Counted from the stretch's first letter, positions 39,227-62,015 are shown. The stretch is 64,000 nucleotides of DNA from an uncultured virus (IMG/VR IMGVR_UViG_3300029305_012016) (IMGVR_UViG_3300029305_012016), one strand, 5' to 3'. The notes: generated from the sequence alone by a model not told the origin. Translations and numbers: made by a program.

Positions 39227-39297
39227 CTTTCTCCTTAATATTTATTTGGCTCTATAAGTTAAAAAACCCCAAATATCACTTATATCACCATATTATT

Positions 39298-39311
39298 ATT
39301 TTATAAGAAAA
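39298..39311 (-). promoter_or_regulatory. Element-specific promoter motif copy
   Basis: minus TTTTTATC-N8-TTTTCTTATAAAAT. Confidence 0.75.
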
Positions 39312-39322
39312 TGAATGCAGAT

Positions 39323-39358
39323 AAAAAACAACCGATCTCCAAAAGCGGAGACCGGTTG
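39323..39358 (-). terminator. Terminator after yoeB
   Basis: CAACCG.TCTCC/GGAGA.CGGTTG stem + T-run on minus. Confidence 0.7.
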
Positions 39359-39380
39359 CAACCGTATTTAGATTTTTGGC

Positions 39381-39644
39381 TTAGCGTTCATAGTGAGTCC
39401 ATAGACTGAGTATTTTGATTGTCTTAGTCTCTTCAAAAACCTCATATACAAGACGATGCTGCACGTTGATTCGTCTTGAATAAAGACCATCAAGGTCGCC
39501 TATGAGTTTCTCATATGTTGGCGGCGTCTTGTAAGGGTTCTCTCGAATCAGCTCAATCAAAGCTTTCGCCTTTTTGTCCAAATGTGCGCCTTGTAGCTTT
39601 GGGATGTCCTTTATAGCAGTTTTGGTGTAGAATATTTCATACAT
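39381..39644 (-). CDS. yoeB: Txe/YoeB family toxin
   Basis: P.YEKL.GDL.G.YSRRIN.QHRLVY...W.HY. Confidence 0.93.
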   Translation of the reverse strand: MYEIFYTKTAIKDIPKLQGAHLDKKAKALIELIRENPYKTPPTYEKLIGDLDGLYSRRINVQHRLVYEVFEETKTIKILSLWTHYER

Positions 39645-39893
39645 CTACCATATGACCTCCTCTTCAGGCACACAGTCGGCCAGCGGGGTGTTCTTTCCGG
39701 CAATCAGTTTCTCCTTCATTACGGGATTCGAGGATAACAAAAGAGTTTCAATCATACTCCTGTAATCCTCTTCGCTTAGGACAACTGCATTGCCATCCTT
39801 CGTACTGATGTTAATGGGCTCATTGTAGCGAATAGTTTGCTCCAACAAAGCAAAGATATTTTTGCGAAACGCTGTTATATTAGTGTTCAACAT
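39645..39893 (-). CDS. yefM: Phd/YefM family antitoxin
   Basis: T.FRKN...L......EP..I....GNAVVLSEEDY....ETL.L. Confidence 0.9.
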   Translation of the reverse strand: MLNTNITAFRKNIFALLEQTIRYNEPINISTKDGNAVVLSEEDYRSMIETLLLSSNPVMKEKLIAGKNTPLADCVPEEEVIW

Positions 39894-39910
39894 TTTTACA
39901 CACCTCCCAC

Positions 39911-39945
39911 ATGTACATTATAGCGTACATTTTTGAAAAAGTCAA
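39911..39945 (-). promoter_or_regulatory. Canonical sigmaA promoter with TGTAC operator palindromes (yefM-yoeB)
   Basis: TTGACT-17 bp-TATAAT overlapped by ATGTAC...GTACAT. Confidence 0.8.
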
Positions 39946-40015
39946 GAATAGAATACATACCAAGATAGGAAAACGTGCTTCTCTTCTCAGTAAAGCATTC
40001 TACTCTATCTTCTCT

Positions 40016-40555
40016 TCAACCGTTTGATTTGCGATAGTAGCGAATCTCCAAGGCAACGATTTGATCTTCCTCGTTAATCTTCGCGAAGACGGGACAAGTT
40101 CCATCGCCGTCTCTTGTGCTTCCAAAGAAGCCTTCATTGCAAAGGAGAAAGTTTCCGGCATAGCGAGGAGGGTCGATGATCGGAAAATCTGCTTCCCCAT
40201 GAAGTCTGTCCATCAGCTCAGACCACTCTTCTCGGCTGTAATTTGGCTTATCCATGAAGATGCCTGCATTGCCGGAATCAACACCGATATATCCCACACG
40301 CTTCATTTCGAGAGGAGCGAAAAGAGGAATATCAACGTGATAAATGCCAACAGCGTATACAGAACGGTCTACTACAATCCGATTGGAGTGGGGACGATGA
40401 TGCTGTTCGTCATTTCTCCAGACAACACAGTTGTAGCTACCGGAAAGGACATGCCTCCTCGGAGTGTAGCCATTGCCCTTTTGGTAGCAGGGGTCTGTTA
40501 CTTCTACTCTTCCGGAAAACTCTTTCTGGCCTATGATTTGAGGCACTAAATTCAT
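40016..40555 (-). CDS. Hypothetical protein (DUF4241-like motifs)
   Basis: VTDPCY, IGVDSG.AG, GDG..PV. Confidence 0.65.
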   Translation of the reverse strand: MNLVPQIIGQKEFSGRVEVTDPCYQKGNGYTPRRHVLSGSYNCVVWRNDEQHHRPHSNRIVVDRSVYAVGIYHVDIPLFAPLEMKRVGYIGVDSGNAGIFMDKPNYSREEWSELMDRLHGEADFPIIDPPRYAGNFLLCNEGFFGSTRDGDGTCPVFAKINEEDQIVALEIRYYRKSNG

Positions 40556-40571
40556 ATTTACATCTCCTTCT

Positions 40572-44987: not shown

Positions 44988-46040
44988 TTAAGCAACTTTG
45001 TAGCTTAGTTTATATCCTTTATCACAAGGCAAGTATTGGTCGGGATGCTCATAAATTGTGGCCCGAATTCTCGCCTTAAAATTAGCGTTCTTTTTCGCTT
45101 TAGGATGTTCGGTGAGCTTGATGTAGAGAGTCTGCAAATCAGCCTTGCCACCGAGGGATTCCATGGTACTGCGAATAAGATGATGCCAGGTGATAGATGG
45201 ATCGTCTTGCTTCGTAACATCAAAGATCCCGGTCATTGTTTTCGCAAACTGGAAAACCAACGGATCTTTTTTCTGAAAAAGCAAAAGGTATTCCGTTACG
45301 ATAGGAATGAAGGGCTTTGTATATGTCCGGTTGTCGGATACGCAGTTGTACTGCCCCTTCACAATGAATGACTCGAAGTCTCCGAGCTTCATCATATCGG
45401 ACTGCATACTATAGAATTGGCCCTTCAATCTCATATCTCCCACAAGTACAGCGAGGCGGCCATCCTTACGGAGAGCAGCATACAGCTTTTTGAGAACGAA
45501 GTTCATCTTATCAATGAATTCTTTCCAACTGCTGCATCTGGACAAATCATCAGGATGTGGGTTGCCCCACACACTACCGGAGTAGGTAATCATGCTGTGG
45601 TACGGAGGATGGAAGAAAATTAAGTCGGCGGATTCGTCAACATCATTCTTCAGTGCATTCCAACCACATTTACCATGGGGAGCGTTCGGGTTGAGGTCGT
45701 ACAGAACGGATCTGACGCCGAGCTTATCTGCTGCAAATTTTGAGGTCCCGCTGCCGGACATGGGGTCAAGCAGAGTGAAGTCCGAAATGTCTTTTCCGTA
45801 GTATCGCTTGGAATCAAGCACATACTTGGCAACGGCCTCAACGACCTTCGGGGAACAATTGCCTCGCCAAGAGCTTTTGCCACCGTCGCCCCTTTCTGGG
45901 AAGGCAACGAAGCTGGTCAGTTCTTTGCCCACTCGACGGCGCAGATCTTCCGTTCCGAGAGTCTGAACAATAGCTTGCCAGTTTGAGCCAAATTCTGCTT
46001 CGAGGAGCCGGATCGCTCTGAGGCGTTCTTCGTTATTCAT
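44988..46040 (-). CDS. Orphan DNA amino-methyltransferase (HPPY variant)
   Basis: WRGN, LDPMSGSGT (SAM binding), FFHPPY (catalytic); C-terminal HTH-like segment. Confidence 0.85.
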   Translation of the reverse strand: MNNEERLRAIRLLEAEFGSNWQAIVQTLGTEDLRRRVGKELTSFVAFPERGDGGKSSWRGNCSPKVVEAVAKYVLDSKRYYGKDISDFTLLDPMSGSGTSKFAADKLGVRSVLYDLNPNAPHGKCGWNALKNDVDESADLIFFHPPYHSMITYSGSVWGNPHPDDLSRCSSWKEFIDKMNFVLKKLYAALRKDGRLAVLVGDMRLKGQFYSMQSDMMKLGDFESFIVKGQYNCVSDNRTYTKPFIPIVTEYLLLFQKKDPLVFQFAKTMTGIFDVTKQDDPSITWHHLIRSTMESLGGKADLQTLYIKLTEHPKAKKNANFKARIRATIYEHPDQYLPCDKGYKLSYKVA

Positions 46041-46713
46041 GGTTCTCCTCCTTTCTCTCAAAAGGCTTAAAGGGGAGATCCTCACGACTGTATGCCCATT
46101 TTGCAATGAAGTTCATTTCGTCATAGCTATCGCCTTCACGACCGCACACAAAATCTGCTTGAGAATACATCTCGCGATACCATAAGAACTCCTCCTGCCG
46201 ATCTCTGTAAAAGAGGCCTGAGGATTGTGCTACAGCCTTTTCTGTTGCTATTTGAGCTTTTGCTTCAGAGAATGCCTTCGTTTCAATAGCAGGGATCTGT
46301 TCCCATGCATCTTCCTTTGTGGCAAAGGCAAGAGGTAAACCATCTTCTCCTACGCAAGCCGCATCTGTTGCGTTATCCCAAATAATATATTTGAGGGAGG
46401 CTTGCGGCTCGTTCAGACTATTGGCGAGTGTCGCAGCGTTATCGGTTACAAGGAACCGTTTCTTTGACAGCCGCTTGTCAGCGGAATAGTAATACCATTC
46501 GCCATGGAACAGATCAGGAAGGGTTCCCCAAAAGGCTTCTGCGTTACCGGCACATTCTTCGTAAAGCTCGATAATTCGAGGTGCATCGACAATCATGATT
46601 TCCCAAGATTCAACCGTCGAATCCCAGTTCATATAGATTATCCAAATCTCGTTTTCGTTTCCATGAATCTTCCCGGGAAGAAACACGGCATCTTTTTCAA
46701 AGTTTTCATCCAT
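46033..46713 (-). CDS. Hypothetical protein
   Basis: 226-aa ORF, first after promoter and leader motif. Confidence 0.65.
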   Translation of the reverse strand: MDENFEKDAVFLPGKIHGNENEIWIIYMNWDSTVESWEIMIVDAPRIIELYEECAGNAEAFWGTLPDLFHGEWYYYSADKRLSKKRFLVTDNAATLANSLNEPQASLKYIIWDNATDAACVGEDGLPLAFATKEDAWEQIPAIETKAFSEAKAQIATEKAVAQSSGLFYRDRQEEFLWYREMYSQADFVCGREGDSYDEMNFIAKWAYSREDLPFKPFERKEENHE

Positions 46714-46740
46714 AGATTCTCATTCTCCCATTTTTTATTT

Positions 46741-46789
46741 GGTTTTGTGATATTTCTAATTTCAACTCCAATCATCACATAAATTAACC
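46741..46789 (-). promoter_or_regulatory. Conserved 5' leader hairpin (GUGAUGAUUGGAG)
   Basis: UGUGAU pairs AUCACA; GGUU pairs AACC. Confidence 0.55.
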
Positions 46790-46797
46790 ATACTAAT

Positions 46798-46811
46798 ATT
46801 ATATATGAATT
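46798..46811 (-). promoter_or_regulatory. Element-specific promoter motif copy (variant)
   Basis: minus TTTTTATT-N8-AATTCATATATAAT. Confidence 0.6.
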
Positions 46812-46822
46812 CACTTAACAAT

Positions 46823-46854
46823 AAAAAATGACCAACCCCGAAGGGTTGGCCATT
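46823..46854 (-). terminator. Terminator after MoxR/VWA operon
   Basis: ATG.CCAACCC/GGGTTGG.CAT stem + T-run on minus. Confidence 0.75.
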
Positions 46855-46868
46855 ACGCTATTTGTATA

Positions 46869-47594
46869 TTAGTTTGTAGCTCCTCGTTCACGCAAAGCAG
46901 AGGCAACGGCTTCCGCAGCGTTACGAATTTCATCATCAGTAGCGTTTGCCACGAAAGCGGCTACACTTGCATACCCGTTAATAAAAACGGCCAGCGATGT
47001 AAATCTCGCAACATTCTTCAAAAAAGCAACCAAACGGTCTCTCCCATAGTAGCGAGAGACATCGACACAGCTAAGCCACTGTTTGCAGTAACGAACAATG
47101 CAGGCTCTTTCTCTGGAATTTTCGGGAAGTGATGTCGCATATGCGTTCAGAGGGTGAAGGGCAGCCTCTTCGATCTCATGGAGAACCTCAGACGGAGTCA
47201 ACCCTACATAGGGACCACCGGTCATTCTCTCCGACGAAATTTCTTGCATGGGGCTGTAGGGGACGGCACGAGCAAGATCTTCAGACGAAGGGGCGGATAA
47301 GGGAACCGCAGGCTCCAAGCCTTCAACGACAAGAACCTTTTCCTCAGCTTTAGGCACGGAAGGCATCTCAGACTCTTTTTTAACTACATCGGGCATTTTC
47401 TCCTTTGGAGGTGCCGGAGCAGTCTGAACGGAAGAGGATTGCTTTGCCACCGTAGGCGGAGGACAGGGGTTAGGGGCAAACATTTTACAAAGGTGTTGCA
47501 TCATAGCATGAATTGCAGCATCCTGTTCTTCAGACGGGCCATCAATCACGATGATAGTGCGATTTCCGTCTTTCAACATTTGCATTCCAAACAT
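46869..47594 (-). CDS. Hypothetical protein with Pro-rich linker
   Basis: third gene of MoxR/VWA operon. Confidence 0.7.
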   Translation of the reverse strand: MFGMQMLKDGNRTIIVIDGPSEEQDAAIHAMMQHLCKMFAPNPCPPPTVAKQSSSVQTAPAPPKEKMPDVVKKESEMPSVPKAEEKVLVVEGLEPAVPLSAPSSEDLARAVPYSPMQEISSERMTGGPYVGLTPSEVLHEIEEAALHPLNAYATSLPENSRERACIVRYCKQWLSCVDVSRYYGRDRLVAFLKNVARFTSLAVFINGYASVAAFVANATDDEIRNAAEAVASALRERGATN

Positions 47595-47609
47595 GACTAT
47601 CGTCCTTTC

Positions 47610-51894: not shown

Positions 51895-51942
51895 ATTTTT
51901 TTCGATATTCTATTTTTGACTCCCAATCATCACATAAAATAT
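51895..51942 (-). promoter_or_regulatory. Conserved 5' leader hairpin (GUGAUGAUUGGGAG)
   Basis: UGAU pairs AUCG; AUAUUUU pairs AAAAUGU. Confidence 0.5.
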
Positions 51943-51953
51943 CCGACAAATAC

Positions 51954-51967
51954 ATTGTATAAGAAAA
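51954..51967 (-). promoter_or_regulatory. Element-specific promoter motif copy (MoxR operon)
   Basis: minus TTTTTATC-N8-TTTTCTTATACAAT. Confidence 0.75.
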
Positions 51968-52510: not shown

Positions 52511-52539
52511 TTGACAAAATACCGAATTAAGGGCATAAT
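52511..52539 (+). promoter_or_regulatory. Canonical sigmaA promoter
   Basis: TTGACA-17 bp-CATAAT. Confidence 0.7.
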
Positions 52540-52576
52540 AAAGAAGAAAGCAAAAGAAAGAGGGGGGAAATAAATC

Positions 52577-52909: not shown

Positions 52910-53035
52910 CAATAAAAAAACGGGTTGCGGTAGAATCGCTGCCCGTTTTTCTTGATGTTTTATAAATACACGAGCCATGGGGGTTCCCCATGGCTCGCTT
53001 CATTTATTTTAGGACTTTATTTTGACTATTTGTTA

Positions 53036-53695: not shown

Positions 53696-53728
53696 GATTT
53701 CACTTCCTTTATCCTGTATATAGTTTAT

Positions 53729-53962
53729 TTATTCGAATGCTTTTTCGGTGAAGCAATCATTGGGGTCAGCATCAGGGTCTTCTGTTGCGTCAGTTGCTTC
53801 CCATTCATCAGACCAACTCACCGAATCGGTCAACTGATGGTTGGCAATTTCCAGAGCTTCGGTTTCAGATTTAGCTGTGACGAAGATACACCCAGTCCGA
53901 ACAACGGTTACGCAGTAGGTCTTATTTTCTTCATCAGTGATAGGTTTCGCATTTTCACTCAT
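53729..53962 (-). CDS. Small acidic protein (DpnD/PcfM-like pattern)
   Basis: Y.VTV......VTAKSETEALEIA. Confidence 0.6.
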   Translation of the reverse strand: MSENAKPITDEENKTYCVTVVRTGCIFVTAKSETEALEIANHQLTDSVSWSDEWEATDATEDPDADPNDCFTEKAFE

Positions 53963-53996
53963 ATTATTGTACCTTCCTTTTTTAATTAGTCAACGG

Positions 53997-54665
53997 TCAG
54001 TGGAACACATCGATTACACTCAATGAAGACTCTTGGTCAAAAAACTCTTCTATCTCGATAGCTCCGTAATAAGGACATTGCTTAGGATCCAACTCATGAT
54101 CATAACACCAGTCTTCAAACATGGCTTCTGCATTAAGGTTAGATTCTTTTATAAAAGCGAGAGCTTCTTCGTGGGTTTTGGCACCATATTTAAGTAAGAG
54201 GCTATCAATCTTTCTATCTCCGGAATCGCATTCATCGTAGACAGAGAAAATGACATCGCATCTGTGAGCCTGGACATTCTCCCTGACAGAATTTAGATCG
54301 CCGGAAGCAATAGCGGTAGAGAAAGCAACAAATGTCTCTATGATAGAAACAGGACAATCCCTTAATTTCATTTCCATTTTACTGCGGACCTTGTGATACT
54401 GATCTACCAGACAATCGCCTTTCTGCCGAGCTTCAGCATCCTCCCTTGCATTGAATAAGACAAATTCGCCACTATATTCTGGCTCATATTGTTCATGACA
54501 GGGGATAGCGTATTCTCCAAGGCTGAGGTCCTTGTAAAATTTATGTCCGAATGTGTCGGTAAGGTATTTTCTTCCAACGGACACCTCAACCTCTCTTATA
54601 GATACCCCCATGCGTTTTGCGTTGCTTCTTGGGAGGGCATACAGATATGCCTTACGCTTTTCCAA
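53997..54665 (-). CDS. Hypothetical protein
   Basis: TTG start with AAAGGAG RBS. Confidence 0.65.
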   Translation of the reverse strand: MEKRKAYLYALPRSNAKRMGVSIREVEVSVGRKYLTDTFGHKFYKDLSLGEYAIPCHEQYEPEYSGEFVLFNAREDAEARQKGDCLVDQYHKVRSKMEMKLRDCPVSIIETFVAFSTAIASGDLNSVRENVQAHRCDVIFSVYDECDSGDRKIDSLLLKYGAKTHEEALAFIKESNLNAEAMFEDWCYDHELDPKQCPYYGAIEIEEFFDQESSLSVIDVFH

Positions 54666-54759
54666 TTTCGCATCTCCTTTCGTTTTTTTTGCTTCTCGTT
54701 TCTTACAGAAGGAGAGAGGGCAAGTGAGCTGCCCTCTGCTCCAAAATCACTATATATAG

Positions 54760-54773
54760 ATTATATAAGAAAA
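54760..54773 (-). promoter_or_regulatory. Element-specific promoter motif copy
   Basis: minus TTTTCTTATATAAT followed by GTGATTTTGGAG and a hairpin. Confidence 0.7.
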
Positions 54774-54782
54774 CGAATAAAC

Positions 54783-55214
54783 TTAATCCTTTTCCCACAC
54801 AAAGTTTCCGTCTGCATCTTCGATGATGGTATGTTCCATATCGATGTCTTCGAGAGGACCATAATCAGCATCCTGGTAAGCTTCGGTCGCTTTGGCTTTA
54901 GCTTCTTCGACGCTTTCCGCATATACATGGGCCACGTGTCGTCCTTCGACTTTCATAGTTACCCAGTATTCGTTGCCACTCACAGCACATTCGGTGTCGG
55001 CTGTTAGTTCAAGCAATCGCTTGCGTAACAAGTCGGCCTTCTTCTCGAAGAAAGATCGAATGGTTTCTGCTTTGCTACCGGCTTCAAATTCTTTTGCCCA
55101 TGCAGTAAAAAGACCAGTCAATTCTTCGGAATCAAAAAGATCCATTCGGGGGGTGGAGGCGATTTCTTTGCCCCACAACACAGCGAATGCAACAATAATA
55201 TCAGACATACTCAT
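54783..55214 (-). CDS. Hypothetical protein with DpnD/PcfM-like C-terminus
   Basis: YWVTM......HVYAESVEEAKAKA...Y. Confidence 0.65.
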   Translation of the reverse strand: MSMSDIIVAFAVLWGKEIASTPRMDLFDSEELTGLFTAWAKEFEAGSKAETIRSFFEKKADLLRKRLLELTADTECAVSGNEYWVTMKVEGRHVAHVYAESVEEAKAKATEAYQDADYGPLEDIDMEHTIIEDADGNFVWEKD

Positions 55215-55240
55215 TCTCCTTTGTTTGATAGCTTTATAGA

Positions 55241-55609
55241 CTAAATTCCCGTAATGGTTGTAAGATGAAATTCATCATCGCAAGGAGGGTCATAGCCATC
55301 GAACCAAGTGATATGACCATTTTCGTCCTTGAATCCGAAGCCATCAGCGATGATTTCCGGTACACCGTTTGTATATAACTCAGTGCTACCGTACACATTA
55401 GGTGCTTCGACTACTTTGTATTGGAGAACAACGCCTCTTTCGTATCCGAGCTGAAACCTATCAAGAATGAATTGCTGCCATGTTTCTTGAGTGAATGTGG
55501 TAAGTGCAATGCCTAAACGCTGTCGCAAAAATACATCTCTAAAGGATTCTTCTATGTCATACACCTTCGTTTTACCGGGTTCGGTAACATGCTCATATAT
55601 AATCTTCAT
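55241..55609 (-). CDS. Hypothetical protein
   Basis: 122 aa, AAAGGAG RBS. Confidence 0.65.
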   Translation of the reverse strand: MKIIYEHVTEPGKTKVYDIEESFRDVFLRQRLGIALTTFTQETWQQFILDRFQLGYERGVVLQYKVVEAPNVYGSTELYTNGVPEIIADGFGFKDENGHITWFDGYDPPCDDEFHLTTITGI

Positions 55610-55655
55610 CTTTGATTCTCCTTTCAGTTATATATAAAAGAATTAACTTTCGGAA

Positions 55656-57545
55656 TCAAAGAAGAAGGGGCTGAGAGCTTGTAGCGATGATGAAATTATC
55701 GGGGGCAGCGTACACCTTGTCGTACTCTTTTTCTCCCTGGAATTCATCAATAACCGCTCTTTCCTCAGCGGTCATGTCGCTATAGCGCACCTTTCCATAA
55801 GTGGGAGGCAGCCAATTATACTTGCTGCCGGCAAAAATATTGAGCCGGTCGAGGATGTGCTGCGCTTCATCTTTGAATCGTATATGGCATGTGCCTTTCT
55901 TGTAAAAACGAGCGGTGAAATAGGTGCAGTCGATCTCTGCTTTACCACAACGGTTTGCTCTCCGGACTTCCAATTCAATATTGGTATGGTAGGCTGTTTC
56001 CCCTCTATCAAGATAATCCATGACTTTTACCAGATCGCACATGATGTTGAAAATGCGATAGGAATCAAGCATTTCTCCGCACCAAGAGTCTGCGTAGGCA
56101 CCGTTTACGGGAATAATAACCTTCTTGCCCACCTTATGAGCCTTGTTCGTTTTCCATCCGGTGTAATACCACCGGTTTTTCCCAGTCTCGGGAAGGTAAG
56201 AGTGTTCTGCGGACAGTTTTTGGAAGAGATCAAGAATAGCTTGTTCCATACCGGCGTTTAACTGAAGCTGGATATCGTAGATAAATTGTCGGATGTTAAA
56301 TTCATCAAACTCGTAACTCGCCATTTTATCCAGCTTGTCACGATAATCTTCGAGCATCGCAGACGGCATTGCTCCGGTCTTTTCCTGAAGACGATCATTG
56401 TACATAAACAGTCTCCAGTATTTATACCGTACAGAATCCAGATAATCATTGATAAGCTTCGTTTCATTGATATCTCCACCCCATACGGAGTGAGAACCAA
56501 TTTGCAGCTTAATGTGAGGTGTTGCGTCGCTCTTGTCTGTGACGCGGATGTATGGTGCAATCCGGACATACTCCTGCAGGAAAGTAACGCCACCATCGCA
56601 CTCAATGCGATACCCGGTAAGAAGTTCATGAATCCAGTCTTCTTTTACGGCCAAAGCAGATGGACCAAAGTTATCAGCCTCATATCGCTGCGCTCTTTTC
56701 AGATCCTCAAAAATCTTGGAAGGTCGCACTACCCTCGGGATAGAAATTGTGATAATAGCAATTTCTACATCCGTGGGATGTTCAGATCTTTTGAATGCGT
56801 CCCTTACGAATTCAACTCTTGCCCCATACTCTGAGAGCTTCTGCAGAAGAAGCTTGCGAGAATTTGTATATGGATTGCGAATGGTCTCCGCATTCAAAAT
56901 ACAACAGATCTGCCCACCATTTTCCTGCAACATAATAGCTTTGAGCAGATGCTTTTCTCCCTCAAAGAACGGAGGGTTCATCAGAATGACATCATAGCGC
57001 TTTCTGGCGTTGTGGCGAAGGAAATCATCATCAATAAGACGATATCCCTTGCCCCTCAAAACAAACTGGAGGTTAGGATCTAACTCAATTACATCAACGT
57101 CCTTTTTGACGTCGATACGACAACATTTGCGGGTTTTATCGATGAACCGAGCAAGCCCCTCAAGAATGTCTCCCTTTCCGGCAGACGGTTCTAAGACGCT
57201 GCTAACGTCCTTCCAATTGATTCCGGAAAGCATTTTTCCTACAATCGCAGCGGGCGTGGGGTAGAACTGCAATTCTTCGTTTGCGGGGAGCAAATTGCAT
57301 GGGGCTCTGCGTTTGCTCTGTTCCTCCTTATAGGCCTTCTCAGCAAGCTTTTTCGCTTCGAATACATTGTTCCGGGTGCCGACATGACAAAGTCTGTCGT
57401 AAGAATCATTGATCGCTACACGGAAATCACCGTCGCGACATTCGTAGATCTCACCGACTTGCTTCCCATCGTAAATATTGATGGCTCGTAGCTCTCTACA
57501 GCCATCTCGTCTTTTTTGCGAATGACGTTCTTCACGGAATACCAT
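55656..57545 (-). CDS. Orphan N6-adenine methyltransferase with DUF4942-like C-terminal domain
   Basis: QFYPTP, VLEPSAGKG, IELD, MNPPF; GWKTN, YF..RFYKKGT.H, WLP. Confidence 0.88.
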   Translation of the reverse strand: MVFREERHSQKRRDGCRELRAINIYDGKQVGEIYECRDGDFRVAINDSYDRLCHVGTRNNVFEAKKLAEKAYKEEQSKRRAPCNLLPANEELQFYPTPAAIVGKMLSGINWKDVSSVLEPSAGKGDILEGLARFIDKTRKCCRIDVKKDVDVIELDPNLQFVLRGKGYRLIDDDFLRHNARKRYDVILMNPPFFEGEKHLLKAIMLQENGGQICCILNAETIRNPYTNSRKLLLQKLSEYGARVEFVRDAFKRSEHPTDVEIAIITISIPRVVRPSKIFEDLKRAQRYEADNFGPSALAVKEDWIHELLTGYRIECDGGVTFLQEYVRIAPYIRVTDKSDATPHIKLQIGSHSVWGGDINETKLINDYLDSVRYKYWRLFMYNDRLQEKTGAMPSAMLEDYRDKLDKMASYEFDEFNIRQFIYDIQLQLNAGMEQAILDLFQKLSAEHSYLPETGKNRWYYTGWKTNKAHKVGKKVIIPVNGAYADSWCGEMLDSYRIFNIMCDLVKVMDYLDRGETAYHTNIELEVRRANRCGKAEIDCTYFTARFYKKGTCHIRFKDEAQHILDRLNIFAGSKYNWLPPTYGKVRYSDMTAEERAVIDEFQGEKEYDKVYAAPDNFIIATSSQPLLL

Positions 57546-57604
57546 ATTTGTTGTTCCTTTCACATTGTTTTTTTGTTTGGAGCATAGGTTAGCGAGAATG
57601 TTTA

Positions 57605-57745
57605 CTATCGGATAAACTTGAACTTGCTATAGTTAGCTTCGTCAACGAGGTAGTACCCATCACCAGACTTGTAAACCTCGATGTTGCCAATGCGACCGCA
57701 GGGGGCGTAGCTGAAGCTGATAATCTTGGAACCAGACTTAGACAT
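57605..57745 (-). CDS. 46-aa small protein not in the ORF track
   Basis: GAAAGGATG RBS; MSKSGSKIISFSYAPCGRIGNIEVYKSGDGYYLVDEANYSKFKFIR. Confidence 0.6.
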   Translation of the reverse strand: MSKSGSKIISFSYAPCGRIGNIEVYKSGDGYYLVDEANYSKFKFIR

Positions 57746-57799
57746 ATTTTTCATCCTTTCTTCTGTGTAAGATTCGTACAGTTTTGATTTTTTGCTTAA

Positions 57800-58135
57800 T
57801 CAGATACCTTCAAACGGGCATCCATTTGCCTTCATTTCGCTTGGGATGATTTCGTCGGGATACGCCTGCATCACATGCCCGTCCTCGAATTTGATGTCCC
57901 ACATAGGAAGACACTCCAAATCGACGGCTTCTTCTGATGCACGGCCTATTACGACAAAGGGCTTTCCATGATAGTCGGGGAAATCGCCACCCTGACTCCA
58001 GAATTTGTCTGAGAAGCCTTCCTTTTCATAGAGATCGAAGCAATCGCCAACAAATTCTCGTTCTCTGTCCACACTCATTTCGTCTCTAAACTCGGGATAT
58101 TTCTTTCTCATATCATCCCATGTCTGAACCGCCAT
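57800..58135 (-). CDS. Hypothetical protein
   Basis: GAGGAGG RBS before MAVQTW. Confidence 0.7.
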   Translation of the reverse strand: MAVQTWDDMRKKYPEFRDEMSVDREREFVGDCFDLYEKEGFSDKFWSQGGDFPDYHGKPFVVIGRASEEAVDLECLPMWDIKFEDGHVMQAYPDEIIPSEMKANGCPFEGI

Positions 58136-58235
58136 GTTTTTCACCTCCTCAATATTGAAGCAATTGAGCAATCCCTCTGCCCGGAACAGGGCAGAGGGAT
58201 TTTTGGATTTTTTTGTATATCACGATAAAAATATG

Positions 58236-58490
58236 CTACCACGAAGATTCCTTTTTTAACCACTCGTTTGAGCAGTAGCAGGGGAGGTCTGCAACAGAGA
58301 TGTAGAGTGCTCGTCCGGGGATAATGCTCGGCCCAAAAATAAGGGGCACGGGGGAGAGGCTTTCTACACCAACACCAAATGCTTGGGACAACGCAATTAG
58401 CTTATCGCCAACTTCTTCCGGTGTTTCATAGAGACCATAACACTTGTTGCCGGATTCATCCGTATAGCAAAGAACCCATTTTTCTATCAT
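58236..58490 (-). CDS. Small hypothetical protein
   Basis: ATGA overlap with upstream gene. Confidence 0.5.
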   Translation of the reverse strand: MIEKWVLCYTDESGNKCYGLYETPEEVGDKLIALSQAFGVGVESLSPVPLIFGPSIIPGRALYISVADLPCYCSNEWLKKESSW

Positions 58491-58882
58491 ACGATGGTGT
58501 ATACCGAGTTCCGGGTTTCAAACATTTGCTCATTGACCACACGGAATACGGTAGAGGTAATCATTTTTGCCCCATCCACCAAGAGCTCAGCCCGCTCGCC
58601 CTCGCGAATGGGGCACAGAATCTCGGTTGTGGCGGAGTTGAGGGCAACAGTTCTCTTCTGCACGAAATGCGGGTGCAAGATCGTGTAAACCGAGCCGGAC
58701 TCAGTAACAAATCTTACGGAGTGGCCATAAGCATTTGCACTTACGACAGAGGATGTTCTGTAATCCCTGCCATTTGCACTGAATACTGCCGGAGCACCAA
58801 CAACCAGCGCACACATAAATTTCGCACCTTCGAAAAAGTGGTTCGTTGTTGCATTTGCAACATTAACATCATTTTTTGCCAT
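58487..58882 (-). CDS. Hypothetical protein with internal duplication
   Basis: TS.V......F.T.SGSVYT / TS.V......FETRNSVYT. Confidence 0.65.
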   Translation of the reverse strand: MAKNDVNVANATTNHFFEGAKFMCALVVGAPAVFSANGRDYRTSSVVSANAYGHSVRFVTESGSVYTILHPHFVQKRTVALNSATTEILCPIREGERAELLVDGAKMITSTVFRVVNEQMFETRNSVYTIV

Positions 58883-58983
58883 TTTTCATCATCCTTTCGA
58901 ATATTCTTTCGTTGAATTGTTTTGGACTCTGCGACAAGCTCGATTGATGCTTGTCGCAGAGAATTGCAGAGATTGCCGAAGGG

Positions 58984-59478
58984 TTAATTGACGAACTTTT
59001 CCAGATCTATGGTCTTGCGACCAGCGGGGGTGTGATAGTAGTAGAGATCGGAAAGCAGGCCGGTAATAACCCTCTTTGCACAGCGCATGGAGCAGTTTTC
59101 GACACAGATACGAGCCTCCGTAACAACTGCATCTACATCTACTCCGTCGTGAAAGCCCACAGTGTACACAGAATATGCTTTGCGAGAGCCCGCACCTCTG
59201 TTGTAGGAGACTACCAGGTTGATGCCTTCGGTTACTACGCAGTCGCAGAATTTCGCGTTGGAGCAACAGGTGGGGTCTACATTAACAAAGGTCTTGCCGA
59301 AACTATTGTTTGCACGAACAGTGTTCAGAATAAGCTTCGCAATGCCGGACGGCGTCATATTCAAGCCAACAAGAGGGAGATATCTTGCACAGTATGCAAG
59401 GGGATCATTCTGAGGCCGGTACGAAATTACTGCCTCTTTCAATTCTCTGCGAGATCTGAGCGATTCATGGTGCTTCAT
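58984..59478 (-). CDS. Hypothetical protein
   Basis: 164 aa, GAAAGGA RBS. Confidence 0.65.
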   Translation of the reverse strand: MKHHESLRSRRELKEAVISYRPQNDPLAYCARYLPLVGLNMTPSGIAKLILNTVRANNSFGKTFVNVDPTCCSNAKFCDCVVTEGINLVVSYNRGAGSRKAYSVYTVGFHDGVDVDAVVTEARICVENCSMRCAKRVITGLLSDLYYYHTPAGRKTIDLEKFVN

Positions 59479-59531
59479 TTTTTTGTCCTTTCTTCCCCGC
59501 GCAATAGGATGCCGAGGATAAAAAATAGTTT

Positions 59532-59604
59532 GACGGCTATCGTGATATCGTTTTTTTTAGATGTATTTACTTCAAAAAACTCCAAGCATCACAATAAAAC
59601 CATC
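59532..59604 (-). promoter_or_regulatory. Conserved 5' leader hairpin (GUGAUGCUUGGAG)
   Basis: GAUGGUU/AGCCGUC and AUUGUGAU/AUCACGAU stems with G-U pairs on minus strand only. Confidence 0.55.
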
Positions 59605-59611
59605 TGATTAT

Positions 59612-59625
59612 ATTTTATAAGAAAA
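59612..59625 (-). promoter_or_regulatory. Element-specific promoter motif copy
   Basis: minus TTTTTATC-N8-TTTTCTTATAAAAT. Confidence 0.75.
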
Positions 59626-59718
59626 CGAAGGAAGATAAAAACGGAGTATTTTCTTGACAAAAAGAAGAGGCCCCGCCTTCGTAGAACGAAAACAGAGCCT
59701 CAGTTATTTGGGTATAGG

Positions 59719-60219
59719 TTATTTTGTGCGAATCAGCTTACCACCACAGGTGGCACACCGGTATTGCTCCGGAAAACGGATTACTTTAGTCATTTTCTCA
59801 CGACGAACCTCTCTTTGGCAGCAAGTACACTTTAGAACGTATCTGATATTGCGCTCTCTCGGGGCGCACTCCAGTCCCTTTTCTGTGTGGGAGGTGGTTC
59901 TCTTTATTGTGTATTGTGGTAAGAGGCGATTGACCTTGTTTGCAAGCTCAAGCCATTTACCCTTGTGACCGTTGCAACCTTTTACCGCATGGAGGAGTTC
60001 ATGCATAATCGTATCCTTTGCAGCCTTATCAGAAAGATTATCTTGCAGCAAAGACGAAGCAATACTAATTTCGTATATGCCTGAGGCTATGCATTTACAT
60101 TGCCCCCATCTCCTTTTTGCGCGAGTGTTAATTTTCCACCCAGCAATATAACCAGGTTCTATCCCAATATGGAACAGATCGTTCAAGCATTCGTTTGCCA
60201 ATTTCTCCAAATCTTTCAT
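59719..60219 (-). CDS. SprT-like zinc metalloprotease
   Basis: R...RWG.C, HELLH, GH.G.W, C-terminal C.CC..C..C ribbon. Confidence 0.85.
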   Translation of the reverse strand: MKDLEKLANECLNDLFHIGIEPGYIAGWKINTRAKRRWGQCKCIASGIYEISIASSLLQDNLSDKAAKDTIMHELLHAVKGCNGHKGKWLELANKVNRLLPQYTIKRTTSHTEKGLECAPRERNIRYVLKCTCCQREVRREKMTKVIRFPEQYRCATCGGKLIRTK

Positions 60220-60237
60220 AAAAACTCCTCGCTATGG

Positions 60238-61482
60238 TCAAATTTCTTGCGGCTCTTCAATGGAGAGTAACTTTCCGTGAGTCCAGGCGGAACCCACAAA
60301 ACCATAGACTTCATCCACTCCACATTCGTTAAGTAGACCGCTACTGCTGTCCGGCGAAGCGTCGCGAATAAACCGAATAGGAAGCTCAATGTCCTTTTCC
60401 AGCTCAATTTCAAACAGACTACCGGCCCCGTTCCATGGGTCAAACAATCCACAGAAGGTTCTCTTAGACAGAGTGATAGAACCGCAATCAGGGCGCTTAG
60501 AAGCGTCATAGATCGGCTTTTCGTTTGGCGTTTGACCCTTCATAAGAGTTGCAATTCTCAAAATCTCCTCCACAGTTAATCTCACAAGAAATGTCACCGC
60601 ATTCATATGGGTGGAAATATTGAGGATTTCTTGATGAACAGAGCGAAGAAATTTACTTTCCGTTTTGCCACCACGCAAGACGGCAAGAAGCTCATTTTTA
60701 GTGTATCCCTGTTGCTCGGTTAGCCACAGAATTCCGGCCTTCTCATGGACAGGCTCATTCCGGTCTGCTCCGTATGCAGGGAAGGTGTGATTGAGGGTAA
60801 AGTCGTAGTTGCCGTCGCCTGTGTCTACGGTAATGGCAACATTGAATTTCTGCCGGAGGTAATGGTCATAGGGAAGATCAAAGTGGACATGCTCTGCAAG
60901 ATAATCTTCCAAAAACTCTGCTTCTTCAGCAGTTAGGTTGTGGAGAAGAGCAGACTCCTCAATTTCGGAGTTAACGGCATCCTTGAGTCTTTTCATACAT
61001 TCGTAGGTTTCATCTCCATACCATAGCCCGATTTTTCCACGGAATAAATCCATGTAGTCGGCATCTTCTCGCCGCAAAATTTCAAAGACGGTTTCCTTTG
61101 GGAAGGTATCTCTGTAATCTGCATACATTTCGATAGAAATACTTCCGTCCTTATCTTTCTTGACGTTGAATTCGGAGAAGATTGTTTCTTCCACAATCCG
61201 CTTCATTTCTTCTTTTCGGAAGGCCTTCTCGTCTTCTTCCGTCATTTCTTCGCAAACTGCCCCCTCAATGAGGAGATAGCAGTTCTCAGCGCCGAACTCA
61301 GTTCGGTCCATATAGATATACCGAGCGTCGTTCTCGACTTCATCTGCCTCGGAAAGGGGAACTGTATTCCCAATCGTAATGCTGGCGAGCGCGATAGCAT
61401 CGGCTGCGGTACAGGCATCTACAACCGTGGTTTGCAGCTCAATTCCGGCTCCGGGGTAAAGAGCAACTTTATATAATGACAT
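60238..61482 (-). CDS. Hypothetical protein
   Basis: 414 aa, AAAGGAG RBS; CGLFDPW.GAGS..EIEL. Confidence 0.75.
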   Translation of the reverse strand: MSLYKVALYPGAGIELQTTVVDACTAADAIALASITIGNTVPLSEADEVENDARYIYMDRTEFGAENCYLLIEGAVCEEMTEEDEKAFRKEEMKRIVEETIFSEFNVKKDKDGSISIEMYADYRDTFPKETVFEILRREDADYMDLFRGKIGLWYGDETYECMKRLKDAVNSEIEESALLHNLTAEEAEFLEDYLAEHVHFDLPYDHYLRQKFNVAITVDTGDGNYDFTLNHTFPAYGADRNEPVHEKAGILWLTEQQGYTKNELLAVLRGGKTESKFLRSVHQEILNISTHMNAVTFLVRLTVEEILRIATLMKGQTPNEKPIYDASKRPDCGSITLSKRTFCGLFDPWNGAGSLFEIELEKDIELPIRFIRDASPDSSSGLLNECGVDEVYGFVGSAWTHGKLLSIEEPQEI

Positions 61483-61497
61483 TTTTGATTTCTCCTT

Positions 61498-61926
61498 TCA
61501 TACGCAACCGGGTTTGACATAGTCAGCGAGTTCATCGGGAACATCCTCTTGGTTTTCGAAGTACAGATATTCCTCAATAATTTTGCCGTCAGCCTTTGCC
61601 TGTAGATAGATCTTTTCACCATCTTCTTCAGGTATATACCATGTAAGAAAATGGCCAACCGAAAGGGTGTTTGGAAATAGCTCGGGGAAGATCTTTTCAA
61701 AGTAGGTAGCGGGAATTACGAAATTGACCTCTCCGATAGCTTCGTCGTCTTCCTCAGGGCTGCGATAGATCCATCGACGATTTAACTGAATGTTTCCTTC
61801 ATCTTCAACTTCGCACCAGTGATAAGCATGTGTTTCTCCGGTTACAACAGGGAGTCCAAGATCCGCAAGATCATCTAATCCGGTCGTGGAAGCGGCCTGC
61901 TGTGCTTGAGTAGGTTTGCCTTTCAT
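61498..61926 (-). CDS. Acidic hypothetical protein
   Basis: GGAGG RBS before MKGK. Confidence 0.7.
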   Translation of the reverse strand: MKGKPTQAQQAASTTGLDDLADLGLPVVTGETHAYHWCEVEDEGNIQLNRRWIYRSPEEDDEAIGEVNFVIPATYFEKIFPELFPNTLSVGHFLTWYIPEEDGEKIYLQAKADGKIIEEYLYFENQEDVPDELADYVKPGCV

Positions 61927-61968
61927 TATTTGTACCTCCAATGTTCTATCGTCATGGACGATGAATTT

Positions 61969-62015
61969 GGATTTTTAGCGATATTCAATAAACCCCAATC
62001 ATCACATAAAAATCC
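61969..62015 (-). promoter_or_regulatory. Conserved 5' leader hairpin (GUGAUGAUUGGGG)
   Basis: GGAUUUUUA/UAAAAAUCC and GUGAU/AUCGC stems. Confidence 0.6.

Follow-up and report, generated by a model that had tools for sequence, protein, structure and literature searches.

A promoter-coupled leader motif, usually set in a 5' hairpin, at DNA-metabolism and establishment operons of large plasmids of rumen Clostridia

A stretch of 64,000 nucleotides from an uncultured virus (IMG/VR IMGVR_UViG_3300029305_012016), called the window here in its full length, carries a short sequence that recurs at the start of several predicted transcripts. The question it raises is whether this sequence acts in RNA, as part of a leader hairpin, or in DNA, as part of the promoter region. 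The original prediction took it for an undescribed cis-regulatory RNA (for instance a protein-binding operator, a nut-like antitermination site or a zygotic-induction switch). The observation behind that prediction is confirmed; its interpretation holds in part.

The motif, its promoters and its genes

The motif GTGATGMTTGGRG has three exact matches in the window, all on the minus strand and against 0.01 expected (three or more occurred in 0 of 100 shuffles), and allowing up to two mismatches gives seven, again all on the minus strand, against 1.88 expected. The promoter box TTTTCTTATAWAAT has 15 minus-strand copies across the window. Each motif copy of the window begins 15-20 nt downstream of a -10, which lies within the range noted for the cargo operons, and 16-20 nt is the distance for all true copies when the related plasmid pRUMAL01 is taken into account. 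The motif is real, given these exact matches and variants at every place originally named, among them 39.27 kb (GTGATATTTGGGG) and 54.75 kb (GTGATTTTGGAG). The 51.9 kb copy is also present, but it reads GTGATGATTGGGAG, with one extra G, and so is one base away from the strict pattern. The 7.68 and 14.19 kb copies, first described as partial, exist but are not degenerate: their GGAG is the Shine-Dalgarno sequence of real genes. An additional copy lies at 3.9 kb (AAGATGAAAGGAG).

62024..62037, minus strand: plasmid-type promoter box TTTTCTTATATAAT of the 62.0 kb operon, its last six bases being the -10
61993..62005, minus strand: leader motif GTGATGATTGGGG, exact match
61969..62015, minus strand: 5'-terminal stem-loop of the 62.0 kb operon (MFE -15.1 kcal/mol, z -2.86)
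59612..59625, minus strand: promoter box TTTTCTTATAAAAT
59580..59592, minus strand: leader motif GTGATGCTTGGAG, exact match
59532..59604, minus strand: long 5' stem-loop at 59.6 kb, strongly G-U-dependent (z -5.27)
54760..54773, minus strand: promoter box TTTTCTTATATAAT
54739..54750, minus strand: leader motif variant GTGATTTTGGAG, GGAG paired with CUCC downstream
54704..54754, minus strand: atypical G+C-rich, terminator-like hairpin including GGAG (sense z -3.48, antisense z -2.98)
51954..51967, minus strand: promoter box TTTTCTTATACAAT of the MoxR-AAA/VWA operon
51920..51933, minus strand: leader motif GTGATGATTGGGAG, one-base insertion variant
51904..51943, minus strand: 5' stem-loop GAUAUUUUAU.../...AUAGAAUAUC, motif in the apical part (z -2.92)
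46798..46811, minus strand: weaker promoter box AATTCATATATAAT
46766..46778, minus strand: leader motif GTGATGATTGGAG, exact match
46740..46790, minus strand: predicted stem-loop GGUU/AACC plus UGUGAUG/UAUCACA (z -0.24, no better than shuffles)
39298..39311, minus strand: promoter box TTTTCTTATAAAAT
39267..39279, minus strand: leader motif variant GTGATATTTGGGG
39247..39290, minus strand: 5' stem-loop UAUAAGU/ACUUAUA, loop containing GAUAUUUGGGG (z -2.41)
15526..17352, plus strand: sigma-70-like protein with C-terminal GNAT domain (canonical promoter TTGACT-N17-TAAAAT at about 15160-15195)
14186..14198, minus strand: motif AAGATGATTGGAG(G), ribosome-binding site of recD2 (ATG at 14172; promoter box 14217-14230)
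7669..7681, minus strand: motif GTGATGAAAGGAG, ribosome-binding site of a CHC2 primase-like gene (start 7658; promoter box 7700-7713)
3910..3922, minus strand: motif AAGATGAAAGGAG, ribosome-binding site of dnaE (ATG at 3900; promoter box 3942-3955)

The closest replicon is pRUMAL01 of Ruminococcus albus 7, which is syntenic with the window and encodes proteins 35-39% identical to those found there. It has 60 TTTTC...TA[ATC]AAT boxes and, at the same distance from the promoter as in the window, the motif variant TTGATAA-N1-3-TGGAG(T); the 51.9 kb operon is orthologous to pRUMAL01 69004-73198, whose leader has TTGACAAGCTGGAGT. A regular expression for the motif found 40 matches on pRUMAL01, 27 of them with a -10 located 13-22 nt upstream; the remaining 13 are at about the chance level (9.05 in shuffles), so away from promoters there is no excess. 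The promoter-proximal element is kept in a related replicon, and the promoter-coupled leader module belongs to one family of large plasmids of rumen Clostridia (the window element, pRUMAL01 and one metagenome contig). Information content is about 2 bits in the motif columns and 0.1-0.6 bits in the 16 nt between -10 and motif, and the motif has hardly changed between plasmids although identity in their core proteins is down to about 35%. So little change is unusual for an operator/repressor pair, and contact with conserved host machinery fits better. The element does appear to be undescribed, as had been proposed: its leaders matched no Rfam family, whether at the gathering score or at E<=10, and no published description was found in literature searches. 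Nor was it found in any RNA sequencing run searched.

Motif-bearing promoters precede DNA-metabolism and establishment genes, and motif-free promoters precede partition, Rep and surface-protein genes. Among pRUMAL01 first genes having a Pfam or annotated name, the former group comprises RecD2-like, DnaE, RecJ-like, DnaG, SSB and N6/N4 methylase genes together with MazF, MoxR, DUF4314, DUF1848 and DUF4241, and the latter Rep3, ParM, sortase, SpaA adhesin, TSP3, dockerin, RemA, SpoVS, resolvase and IS1595; the same functional split is seen in the window. Zygotic induction, one of the functions first suggested, gains from this in that establishment-type operons are the ones marked, but the precedent cited for it (pLS20/p576) uses a DNA-binding repressor, Reg576, rather than an RNA (PMC6294495).

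The search for a regulator of the motif in the window and pRUMAL01 gave no candidate. Neither CsrA nor a NusG paralog was found on pRUMAL01, RNA-binding families were not found among the ORFs of the window (which covers only part of the element), and no small protein common to the window and pRUMAL01 was found. Both plasmids encode a sigma-70-like protein, and the sigma-70-like/GNAT protein of the window is a candidate reader of the plasmid-type promoters.

Leader hairpins and the GGAG sequence

Five of the six window leaders are clearly structured on the sense strand (z from -2.41 to -5.27). The predicted 3' arm AUAUC(A/G) is found in all four main copies, and the outer stems fold as claimed: at 62.0 kb the outer stem GGAUUUUUA/UAAAAAUCC encloses an inner stem GUGAU/AUCGC with the motif at the apex, and at 59.6 kb the stems are GAUGGUU/AGCCGUC and GUGAUG/CGAUAUCAC. 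The exception is the 46.8 kb leader, which is not clearly structured (z -0.24). Dependence on G-U pairs and hence on the transcribed strand was borne out at 59.6 kb, where the sense leader folds at -22.7 and the antisense at -7.4 kcal/mol (antisense z -0.26); the 54.7 kb hairpin is equally stable on both strands.

Pairing was also assessed by a swap test, in which the 5' and 3' parts of 29 non-redundant long leaders were compared with swapped parts over 20000 permutations. Own parts gain -7.08 kcal/mol and swapped parts -4.77, a difference matched in 0 of the 20000 permutations, although in about a third of long leaders no hairpin better than with swapped partners was seen (those of pRUMAL01 include 55838, 115663, 238630, 395185 and 398251). 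The mean sense fold is -11.1 kcal/mol against -7.5 for antisense, sense being better in 26/29 (Wilcoxon 2e-7), with G-U making up 63 of the 351 pairs; this advantage is partly compositional because the sense strand is rich in G and U. Folded as ssDNA, the leaders are weak (mean -4.8 kcal/mol). The 35 motif leaders have a mean z of -1.28, compared with -0.53 for 42 promoters that lack the motif (p=0.014). In the 38 MFE folds, GGAG is enclosed by the hairpin in 34 and the hairpin base lies 5-11 nt downstream of the -10 in most. Stem sequences are unrelated among copies (for example, AGAACCUGUAG/CUACAGGUUCU in L005), and the inner pair, UUGAUAU/AUAUCAA in pRUMAL01, is GUGAU/AUCAC in the window. 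Aligning 11 hairpins by sequence yielded 0 consensus pairs, so neither column-wise covariation nor a covariance model could be obtained. What survives of the structural claim is a strand-specific hairpin with differing, complementary arms, but not one alignable structure. The RNA hairpin layer is shown statistically: the flanks pair from about +1 and leave GGAG near the tip.

GGAG is a real ribosome-binding site in six operons, including the 3.9, 7.68 and 14.19 kb copies, where a start codon follows 8-15 nt downstream (dnaE, the CHC2 primase-like gene and recD2). In the 29 long leaders it is no more than about 25 nt away from the predicted 5' end and is at least half unpaired in 23, and an ATG 5-11 nt downstream occurs in one (any of ATG, GTG or TTG in eight); with so few start codons, the long-leader motif does not begin a conserved small ORF. 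Simple 16S pairing is disfavoured as an account of GGAG, since the flanking bases are conserved U in all but four of the six direct ribosome-binding-site copies, those four reading GGAGG.

What the module may do

The best reading, held tentatively at a probability of about 0.38, is that of a protective 5' hairpin combined with an operator for a putative trans-acting factor. The module would begin with a promoter consisting of a TTTATC-like -35 followed by TTTTC-N3-TATAAT, with transcription probably starting about 7 nt after the -10, often inside TAGA (+1 is inferred from the -10), and an invariant (T/G)TGAT(A/G)A-N1-3-TGGAG(T) at about +10 to +24. In long leaders, the first 10 or so transcript nucleotides would pair just 3' of the motif to form a 5'-terminal stem-loop, which may act as a 5' stabiliser and protect the mRNA against decay that depends on the 5' end (of the RNase J or RNase Y type). 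Where leaders are short and GGAG is a real ribosome-binding site, a ribosome bound close to the 5' end could take over this protection. A separate sequence layer is suggested by a motif that appears constrained independently of pairing, its 5' side never varying while the 3' arm adapts. The motif would then be the recognition site of the putative factor, uniting DNA-metabolism and establishment operons as one regulon, which the factor would let be expressed in a burst once the plasmid has entered a naive cell and would then shut down. It is slightly more probable that such a factor reads the nascent or folded RNA loop than duplex DNA at +10 to +24; as a linear motif at a fixed distance from the -10 and in one orientation, the site would suit an operator or promoter-proximal element in DNA roughly as well as it would suit an operator in RNA.

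A purely DNA-level motif, with the hairpins as an unrelated generic 5' stabiliser, is the strongest alternative, if a doubtful one. As an operator at +10 to +24, the motif could serve a plasmid repressor comparable to Reg576, KorA or ArdK; alternatively, it could be a promoter-proximal element read by RNA polymerase with a plasmid sigma factor (for example, a -10-like GATAAT and then a TGGA discriminator, causing a sigma-dependent pause). Its occurrence only beside promoters and at a fixed distance from the -10 favours this reading; sequence is kept rather than structure, the 5' arm being invariant even when paired, and hairpin-free and ribosome-binding-site copies have the identical motif. 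The TTGAT-GGAG spacing, nearly fixed at 10-11 nt by an eye count, and the sigma-70-like protein on both plasmids point the same way, as do the p576 operators, DNA heptamers that lie close to promoters and immediately upstream of ribosome-binding sites (PMC6294495). Those heptamers, however, occur in both orientations, and the motif here is asymmetric and in one orientation; its internal spacing ranges from 9 to 12 nt, less than half of the copies (by eye) have a T at the T(-7) position of the supposed -10-like hexamer, and no regulator was found on the window or pRUMAL01. A DNA-level account also leaves the coincidence of the hairpin apex with GGAG unexplained.

It is unlikely that the element is a stabiliser of the STAB-SD type alone, in which the loop GGAG docks the 30S subunit without translation and stem plus 30S block 5'-to-3' decay, with no dedicated regulator. 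The mostly unpaired GGAG near the 5' end, beginning no small ORF in long leaders and serving as a real ribosome-binding site in six operons, suits this mechanism, for which there is a precedent (PMC4113751), and deep conservation is compatible with a host-ribosome partner. But the 16S tail can pair with no more than four bases, the flanking U do not extend the pairing (true ribosome-binding sites of the same plasmids are AAGGAGG), the TTGATAA half is unaccounted for and the gene-function split is not predicted.

A promoter-proximal attenuator or antitermination site, at which the hairpin is an early terminator or pause and read-through is decided by a factor on the nascent motif or by a nut/put/ops-type modification of polymerase, is less probable still. 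U runs follow the pRUMAL01 leader hairpins at 376938 (U8), 382046 (U6), 58667 (U8) and 253981, L005 site A resembles these, the 54.7 kb leader is a G+C-rich terminator-like hairpin, and all genes point the same way, with terminators separating the operons. In most copies, the four main ones of the window among them, the stem is nonetheless not directly followed by a U run, and with a promoter for every operon there is no need for processive antitermination. The nut-type site originally suggested is further disfavoured by the missing NusG paralog on pRUMAL01 and by the lack of a boxA, JUMPstart or other Rfam match.

Very little credence can be given to a fossil, the leftover ribosome-binding site of a promoter-plus-RBS cassette copied before incoming genes and functionless in long leaders: the promoter-motif unit is indeed promoter and ribosome-binding site for replication genes, and metagenome contigs break exactly between -10 and hairpin (X9 at 62016) and also near the 51.9 kb promoter, which shows cargo exchange at the promoter, but the high motif and low spacer information is more than gene conversion can explain and requires purifying selection, conservation spans plasmids at about 35% protein identity, and the complementary 3' arms evolved separately, leader by leader.

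Comparison with known systems

Frpo-type ssDNA promoters in plasmid leading regions form strand-specific hairpins before ssb, anti-restriction and primase-type early genes, and the leaders here likewise place strand-specific hairpins ahead of early-type genes. Unlike in Frpo, both -10 and -35 precede the hairpin and are not part of it, the hairpins are weak as ssDNA, and stems of 5-18 bp are too short to carry a promoter. Antitermination recruitment sites (lambda nut, HK022 put, RfaH ops/JUMPstart) are also short, conserved, early-transcribed elements at several operons of a mobile element, partly hairpins with a conserved loop; the present replicons differ in having tens of sites rather than one to few, a promoter and terminator for each operon, and no boxA-like element. 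CsrA/RsmA targets, of which the B. subtilis hag leader is an example, combine a GGA in a hairpin loop with another one at the ribosome-binding site. The module is similar in its 5' hairpin with loop GGA and in having, 30-90 nt downstream, a ribosome-binding site that also contains GGA, but it lacks the conserved A two bases upstream of GGA, its conserved part far exceeds a CsrA site in length, and csrA was not found on pRUMAL01 or in the window.

Among plasmid regulons, KorA/KorB (IncP) and ArdK (IncW) are looser parallels. Closer are the Reg576 operators, which are likewise short conserved sequences repeated at establishment-gene promoters. In the p576/pLS20 family, Reg576, an RHH repressor, holds down establishment genes such as ardC in established cells and allows a burst after transfer, acting through paired TTATCCC heptamers that occur in either orientation and are placed ahead of the -35, within the spacer or close to the ribosome-binding site (PMC6294495). 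The element described here is instead a single asymmetric motif of 13-15 nt, always transcribed, always at +10 to +24 and usually in an RNA hairpin.

Messages such as aprE, ermC and ompA are stabilised by a 5'-terminal stem-loop. The module resembles Gram-positive 5' stabilisers in having, right at the 5' end of an untranslated leader, structure or an SD-like sequence that is unused for initiation. In STAB-SD of B. thuringiensis cry3A, an SD-like sequence at the 5' end of an untranslated leader hinders 5'-end decay via RNase J1 (PMC4113751). Here, unlike in STAB-SD, the core is just GGAG between conserved U, joined to an invariant TTGATAA half. Over 40 promoters of a single replicon carry it, with its spacing to the -10 fixed and the genes behind it restricted to one functional class.

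A promoter-coupled leader motif in the window and in pRUMAL01

The leader motif, UGUGAUG(A/C)UUGG(A/G)G and its variants, is a conserved promoter-coupled sequence, present in one orientation and at a fixed distance from the promoter. The form GTGATGMTTGGRG has three exact matches in the window (46766-78, 59580-92 and 61993-62005) where 0.01 are expected, and none of 100 shuffles gave three; allowing up to two mismatches yields seven matches against 1.88 expected, all seven on the minus strand, which is also the coding strand of nearly all window genes. Re-reading the four main sites (46.8, 51.9, 59.6 and 62.0 kb) and the variants at 39.3 and 54.7 kb bore out the motif sequences of the original prediction, as well as the AUAUC(A/G) 3′ arm and both outer stems that it described; at 51.9 kb a G is inserted, giving GGGAG. 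Decay does not account for the copies that it called "partial", at 7.68 and 14.19 kb: there GGAG serves as Shine-Dalgarno sequence for the downstream gene (a CHC2 primase-like gene and recD2, respectively), as it also does in an additional copy at 3.9 kb, upstream of dnaE.

Every motif copy in the window is preceded by the box TTTTCTTATAWAAT (TTTTC-N3-TATAAT type, the last six bases being the -10), with the first motif base 15-20 nt downstream of the -10. With at most two mismatches the box has 17 matches in the window (2.3 expected), of which 15 are on the minus strand:

3942-3955, minus strand, promoter box
6813-6826, minus strand, promoter box
7700-7713, minus strand, promoter box
9842-9855, minus strand, promoter box
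14217-14230, minus strand, promoter box
24017-24030, minus strand, promoter box
27138-27151, minus strand, promoter box
30862-30875, minus strand, promoter box
35708-35721, minus strand, promoter box
37391-37404, minus strand, promoter box
39298-39311, minus strand, promoter box
51954-51967, minus strand, promoter box
54760-54773, minus strand, promoter box
59612-59625, minus strand, promoter box
62024-62037, minus strand, promoter box

A TTTATC-like -35 lies upstream, no TTGACA was found there at the window's box promoters, and the box looks like a promoter type peculiar to this replicon family. The leaders had been proposed to be an undescribed RNA, and no Rfam family matches them: covariance models run over the whole window gave no match at the gathering score, and at E<=10 the interval 39000-62200 gave seven weak matches, six of them outside the leaders. 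The MIR1507 match (24.6 bits vs a gathering score of 73) covers the 51.9 kb promoter box.

Judged by Pfam, the window is a portion of a large Firmicutes plasmid. It encodes two Rep3-like initiators, an actin-like ParM, a sortase with an SpaA/thioester adhesin, DnaE, two RecD2-like helicases, a CHC2 protein, a methylase, a MoxR-VWA pair, macro, DUF4942 and SprT-like proteins, a YoeB/Phd toxin-antitoxin pair and TnpB. Five loci deserve separate mention:

27368-28135, minus strand, weak Rep3-like initiator gene
29045-29485, minus strand, 146-aa PhoH-like fragment
29602-30744, minus strand, IS605-type TnpB gene
32066-33127, minus strand, weak Rep3-like initiator gene
39381-39893, minus strand, YoeB/ParE-like toxin and Phd/YefM-like antitoxin pair

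The two Rep3-like genes, about 4 kb apart, flank the TnpB insertion, which the PhoH-like fragment adjoins, and a gene-poor stretch at 30.8-32.0 kb; the toxin-antitoxin pair sits directly upstream of the 39.3 kb leader copy. In pRUMAL01 there are three TnpB copies, whose upstream regions likewise start with a box promoter and the motif variant TTAATAACTGGAGG.

This plasmid of Ruminococcus albus 7 is the closest replicon by protein (ParM 37% and DnaE 39% identical) and has the gene order RecD2-RecD2-hyp-CHC2-DnaE in common with the window. Near-identical DNA was found neither in PLSDB nor in phage records (megablast, query 46000-52200); blastn with the 62.0 kb leader returned noise only, and with a pRUMAL01 leader a full-length match to itself only, plus three short chance matches. 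The whole pRUMAL01 record (420,706 bp) holds 60 TTTTC...TA[ATC]AAT boxes, and the stricter ATTTTCNNNTATAAT occurs 37 times vs 0 in the control. Downstream of about half of the 60 boxes lies TTGATAA-N1-3-TGGAG(T), a variant form of the window motif, which in all true copies starts 16-20 nt after the -10. The motif regex matches 40 places in pRUMAL01: 27 of them follow a -10 at a distance of 13-22 nt and the remaining 13 are at about the shuffle level (9.05), so the motif is strictly promoter-proximal and does not occur between cistrons above chance.

Pattern scans of genomes and metagenomes used the promoter and motif of the window type. Among GTDB genome contigs there was one chance match, in dnaK; among metagenome contigs there were six matches, of which a single contig (L005) was real, adding two further motif copies, one with a perfect 11-bp hairpin (AGAACCUGUAG/CUACAGGUUCU, loop UUGAUAAUUGGAGUUAUA). 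Three scans of IMG/VR viral contigs gave 0, 8 and 6 matches, all chance by inspection. B. proteoclasticus pCY360 (ParM 37% identical) has neither promoter nor motif, and a Monoglobus record matching DnaE was set aside as a housekeeping locus. The element itself (query 52101-62100) is present in 19 listed runs from 15 studies, with source material that is mostly animal faeces and goat/sheep gut metagenomes; none of the 19 is an RNA run. Contigs from four runs are ~99% identical copies with mosaic break points, and cargo seems to be exchanged at conserved promoters. Searches of the literature on pRUMAL01, pCY360 and the B. proteoclasticus episomes found no description of such a leader. A 2011 paper in Plasmid on those episomes reportedly mentions conserved intergenic sequences, so related promoters may already have been described. 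On contigs of runs X9 and X12 (window 62016, 51999-52050) the promoter is in common and the sequences then diverge; on one of these metagenome contigs the break falls precisely in the gap from the -10 to the leader hairpin (62016).

Genes behind the box promoters

The motif is restricted to DNA-metabolism and establishment operons, and in six of these (RBS-type operons) it is the true ribosome binding site. Of 47 first ORFs downstream of box promoters in pRUMAL01, 42 were run through Pfam (RecD2 and DnaE, already annotated, and the three TnpB copies were left out). Among first genes that could be named, motif-bearing promoters lead into those for RecJ-like, DnaG, SSB, N6/N4 methylase, MazF, MoxR, DUF4314, DUF1848, DUF4241, RecD2-like and DnaE proteins; motif-free promoters lead into genes for Rep3, ParM, sortase, SpaA adhesin, TSP3, dockerin, RemA-like, SpoVS, serine recombinase, IS1595, DUF6465 and PsbP-like proteins. 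The window has the same split: its seven motif-free box promoters (6.8, 9.8, 24.0, 27.1, 30.9, 35.7 and 37.4 kb) have short leaders followed by secreted or surface proteins wherever the product is readable. The MoxR-VWA operon is orthologous in the two replicons and carries the leader in both. No other finding argues as strongly as this functional split for a motif that marks a regulon, as opposed to a general expression aid.

The probable reader of the promoter type itself is a sigma-like protein encoded on the plasmid and expressed from a host-type promoter. In pRUMAL01 there is one sigma-70 gene (414313-415305), on the opposite strand and adjoining the replication module, and the equivalent place in the window is occupied as follows:

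15160-15195 (about), plus strand, canonical TTGACT-N17-TAAAAT promoter of the operon
15526-17352, plus strand, gene for a 608-aa protein

The 608-aa protein falls among sigma-70 factors at 0.96-0.97 in the ESM Atlas, where the ten best family-bearing matches are all to sigma families; tblastn against the pRUMAL01 sigma gives a weak match (E 0.13), and Pfam detects a C-terminal GNAT domain only, with sigma domains undetected. A sigma-like protein under such a promoter makes plausible a cascade in which a host sigma would transcribe the plasmid sigma and this in turn the box promoters.

Leader hairpins and sequence constraint

The leaders have a strand-specific tendency to form a hairpin from about +1. 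In the MFE folds of 34 of the 38 copies, the motif lies at the apex of a hairpin whose base is 5-11 nt past the -10, close to the predicted +1. Because MFE folding always finds something, four controls were used. Among 29 non-redundant long leaders, a register-free swap test gave a mean energy gain of -7.08 kcal/mol for joining a leader's own 5′ and 3′ parts vs -4.77 with foreign 3′ parts, a value reached in 0 of 20000 permutations; roughly one third of the copies rank first or second among 28 alternatives, and about a third are without a specific hairpin. Against shuffles, mean z was -1.28 for 35 motif leaders vs -0.53 for 42 motif-free promoters (p=0.014), and for the six window leaders -2.86, -5.27, -2.92, -0.24, -2.41 and -3.48 (five of six at or below -2.4). 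Sense folds average -11.1 vs -7.5 kcal/mol for antisense and are better in 26/29 (Wilcoxon 2e-7), an advantage that is partly compositional, with 63 of 351 pairs in sense folds being G-U. The same hairpins as ssDNA reach a mean of only -4.8 kcal/mol.

Stem sequences are unrelated between copies, and the inner pair UUGAUAU/AUAUCAA of pRUMAL01 becomes GUGAU/AUCAC in the window. One result points the other way: a MAFFT alignment of 11 hairpins gave no RNAalifold consensus pairs, since the spacing from motif to 3′ arm differs among copies and the 3′ arms are not positionally homologous. The 5′-terminal stem-loop of the sense-strand RNA is, taken together, a real tendency of the leaders, evolved copy by copy and not universal. 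Some hairpins have a further feature: at pRUMAL01 376938, 382046, 58667 and 253981 and at 1228-1275 of L005 they are followed directly by runs of U6-U8 and resemble intrinsic terminators placed 40-60 nt into the transcript. None of the four main window copies has a U run directly after the hairpin. In the 54.7 kb leader (54704-54754, minus strand) GGAG pairs with CUCC in a G+C-rich hairpin of equal stability on both strands, followed by a U-rich stretch; it may act in attenuation or be what is left of a terminator.

The TGAT and GG positions of the motif have an information content of about 2 bits, compared with only 0.1-0.6 bits in the 16 nt between -10 and motif and downstream of it, which shows that the motif itself is selected and is no carry-over from recent duplication. 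Its 5′ half is invariant even when paired, the adapting side being the 3′ arm. The bases on either side of GGAG are conserved as U in the long leaders, and in four of the six RBS-type operons GGAG becomes GGAGG. Such a pattern speaks against simple selection for 16S pairing and for sequence-specific recognition. At 5-11 nt after the GGAG of long leaders an ATG is found in 1/29 and any of ATG, GTG or TTG in 8/29, so a conserved small ORF is ruled out. Other identities were also rejected: a second promoter with TTGATA as its -35 (inspection showed no consistent -10), colinear pairing of GUGAU and GGAG with the 16S tail (wrong order, by reasoning), a DnaA or Fur box (resemblance by eye only, with unsuitable spacing), and a palindromic DNA operator TTGATAA...TTATCAA (half-to-half distance from 12 to about 49 nt). 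An ssDNA priming site is improbable in view of the fixed coupling to the -10 and the low stability of the folds as DNA.

Readings of the leader module and known systems

The best reading is a two-layer module, a 5′ hairpin stabiliser combined with an operator for a trans-acting factor, to which we give a probability of about 0.38. The stem-loop would shield the 5′ end of long-leader messages, and the invariant motif would be the operator for a putative factor giving the early-gene class its own timing. Passages on Gram-positive 5′ stabilisers and RNase J1 (PMC4113751) supply the logic for the first layer, and passages on Reg576 of plasmid p576 (PMC6294495) that for the second. The candidate factor would somewhat more probably read RNA than DNA, given a hairpin apex that coincides with GGAG, a single orientation throughout and a variable internal spacing.

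A purely DNA-level operator, or a promoter-proximal element linked to the sigma factor, is the best placed alternative, though a doubtful one. Like the Reg576-type DNA operator, the motif is short and repeated at establishment-gene promoters; it differs in being a single motif in a single orientation, as opposed to paired or dual motifs in either orientation, and no cognate RHH repressor or other conserved small regulator turned up in the window or among proteins common to it and pRUMAL01 (the window being part of its element only). It is unlikely that the UGGAG loop displayed by the hairpin forms, together with its UUGAUAA shoulder, an RNA operator for a single plasmid-encoded trans-acting factor. 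Such a factor, whether a protein or a small RNA that pairs with the loop (UUGG being a U-turn of the YUNR type), would recognise the 5′ ends of some 40 early-gene transcripts and so set the timing of replication, anti-restriction and establishment functions when a rumen megaplasmid enters a new cell: zygotic induction acting on RNA, with a plasmid-encoded sigma factor upstream of it. CsrA/RsmA sites present GGA in a hairpin loop, as do the leaders; the A(N)GGA context is not conserved here, and csrA is absent from pRUMAL01 and the window.

Still less likely is docking of the 30S subunit as at a STAB-SD. The leader GGAG resembles one in lying ~20-25 nt after the inferred start without directing initiation. 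The STAB-SD of cry3A has extended complementarity to 16S rRNA (GAAAGGAGG); such complementarity to the 16S 3′ end is absent here, where the core is GGAG only. Attenuation or antitermination, in favour of which stand the U6-U8 runs after some of the pRUMAL01 hairpins, is improbable. In distinction from nut, put and ops sites, there is no NusG paralog or other NusG-family match on pRUMAL01 and no JUMPstart or other Rfam match. A functionless fossil ribosome binding site, which would leave GGAG as a relic of its role in the RBS-type operons, is very improbable beside a motif that is itself selected.

The leader element is of interest for its scale, with more than 40 sites on one replicon, for the clean split by gene function, for the sigma factor that the plasmid probably encodes and for a host that can be cultivated. 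Hardly any work exists on large plasmids of rumen and gut Clostridia, and the timing of Gram-positive plasmid establishment genes is known for very few systems. Here an expression system spanning the plasmid consists of a dedicated promoter type and a leader module, the latter setting the operons for DNA metabolism and establishment apart from those for maintenance and surface proteins. With R. albus 7 cultivable and more than 40 copies available, the reader of the motif and the choice between RNA and DNA are directly testable. An RNA-binding reader would make this a new class of plasmid regulon; a stabiliser with a DNA operator only would be a tidy but ordinary variation on known themes.

Among known elements, the Frpo ssDNA promoter differs in that the leader -10 lies 5-11 nt upstream of the hairpin base and not within the stem. 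A 5′-terminal protective stem-loop is a stable hairpin beginning a few nt from the 5′ end; the leader hairpin has its base 5-11 nt after the -10 in most copies, close to the predicted 5′ end, and about a third of all copies have no specific hairpin. The element is not demonstrably a new kind; it is akin to two known ones, the stabilisers of 5′ leaders and the operators of plasmid establishment genes.
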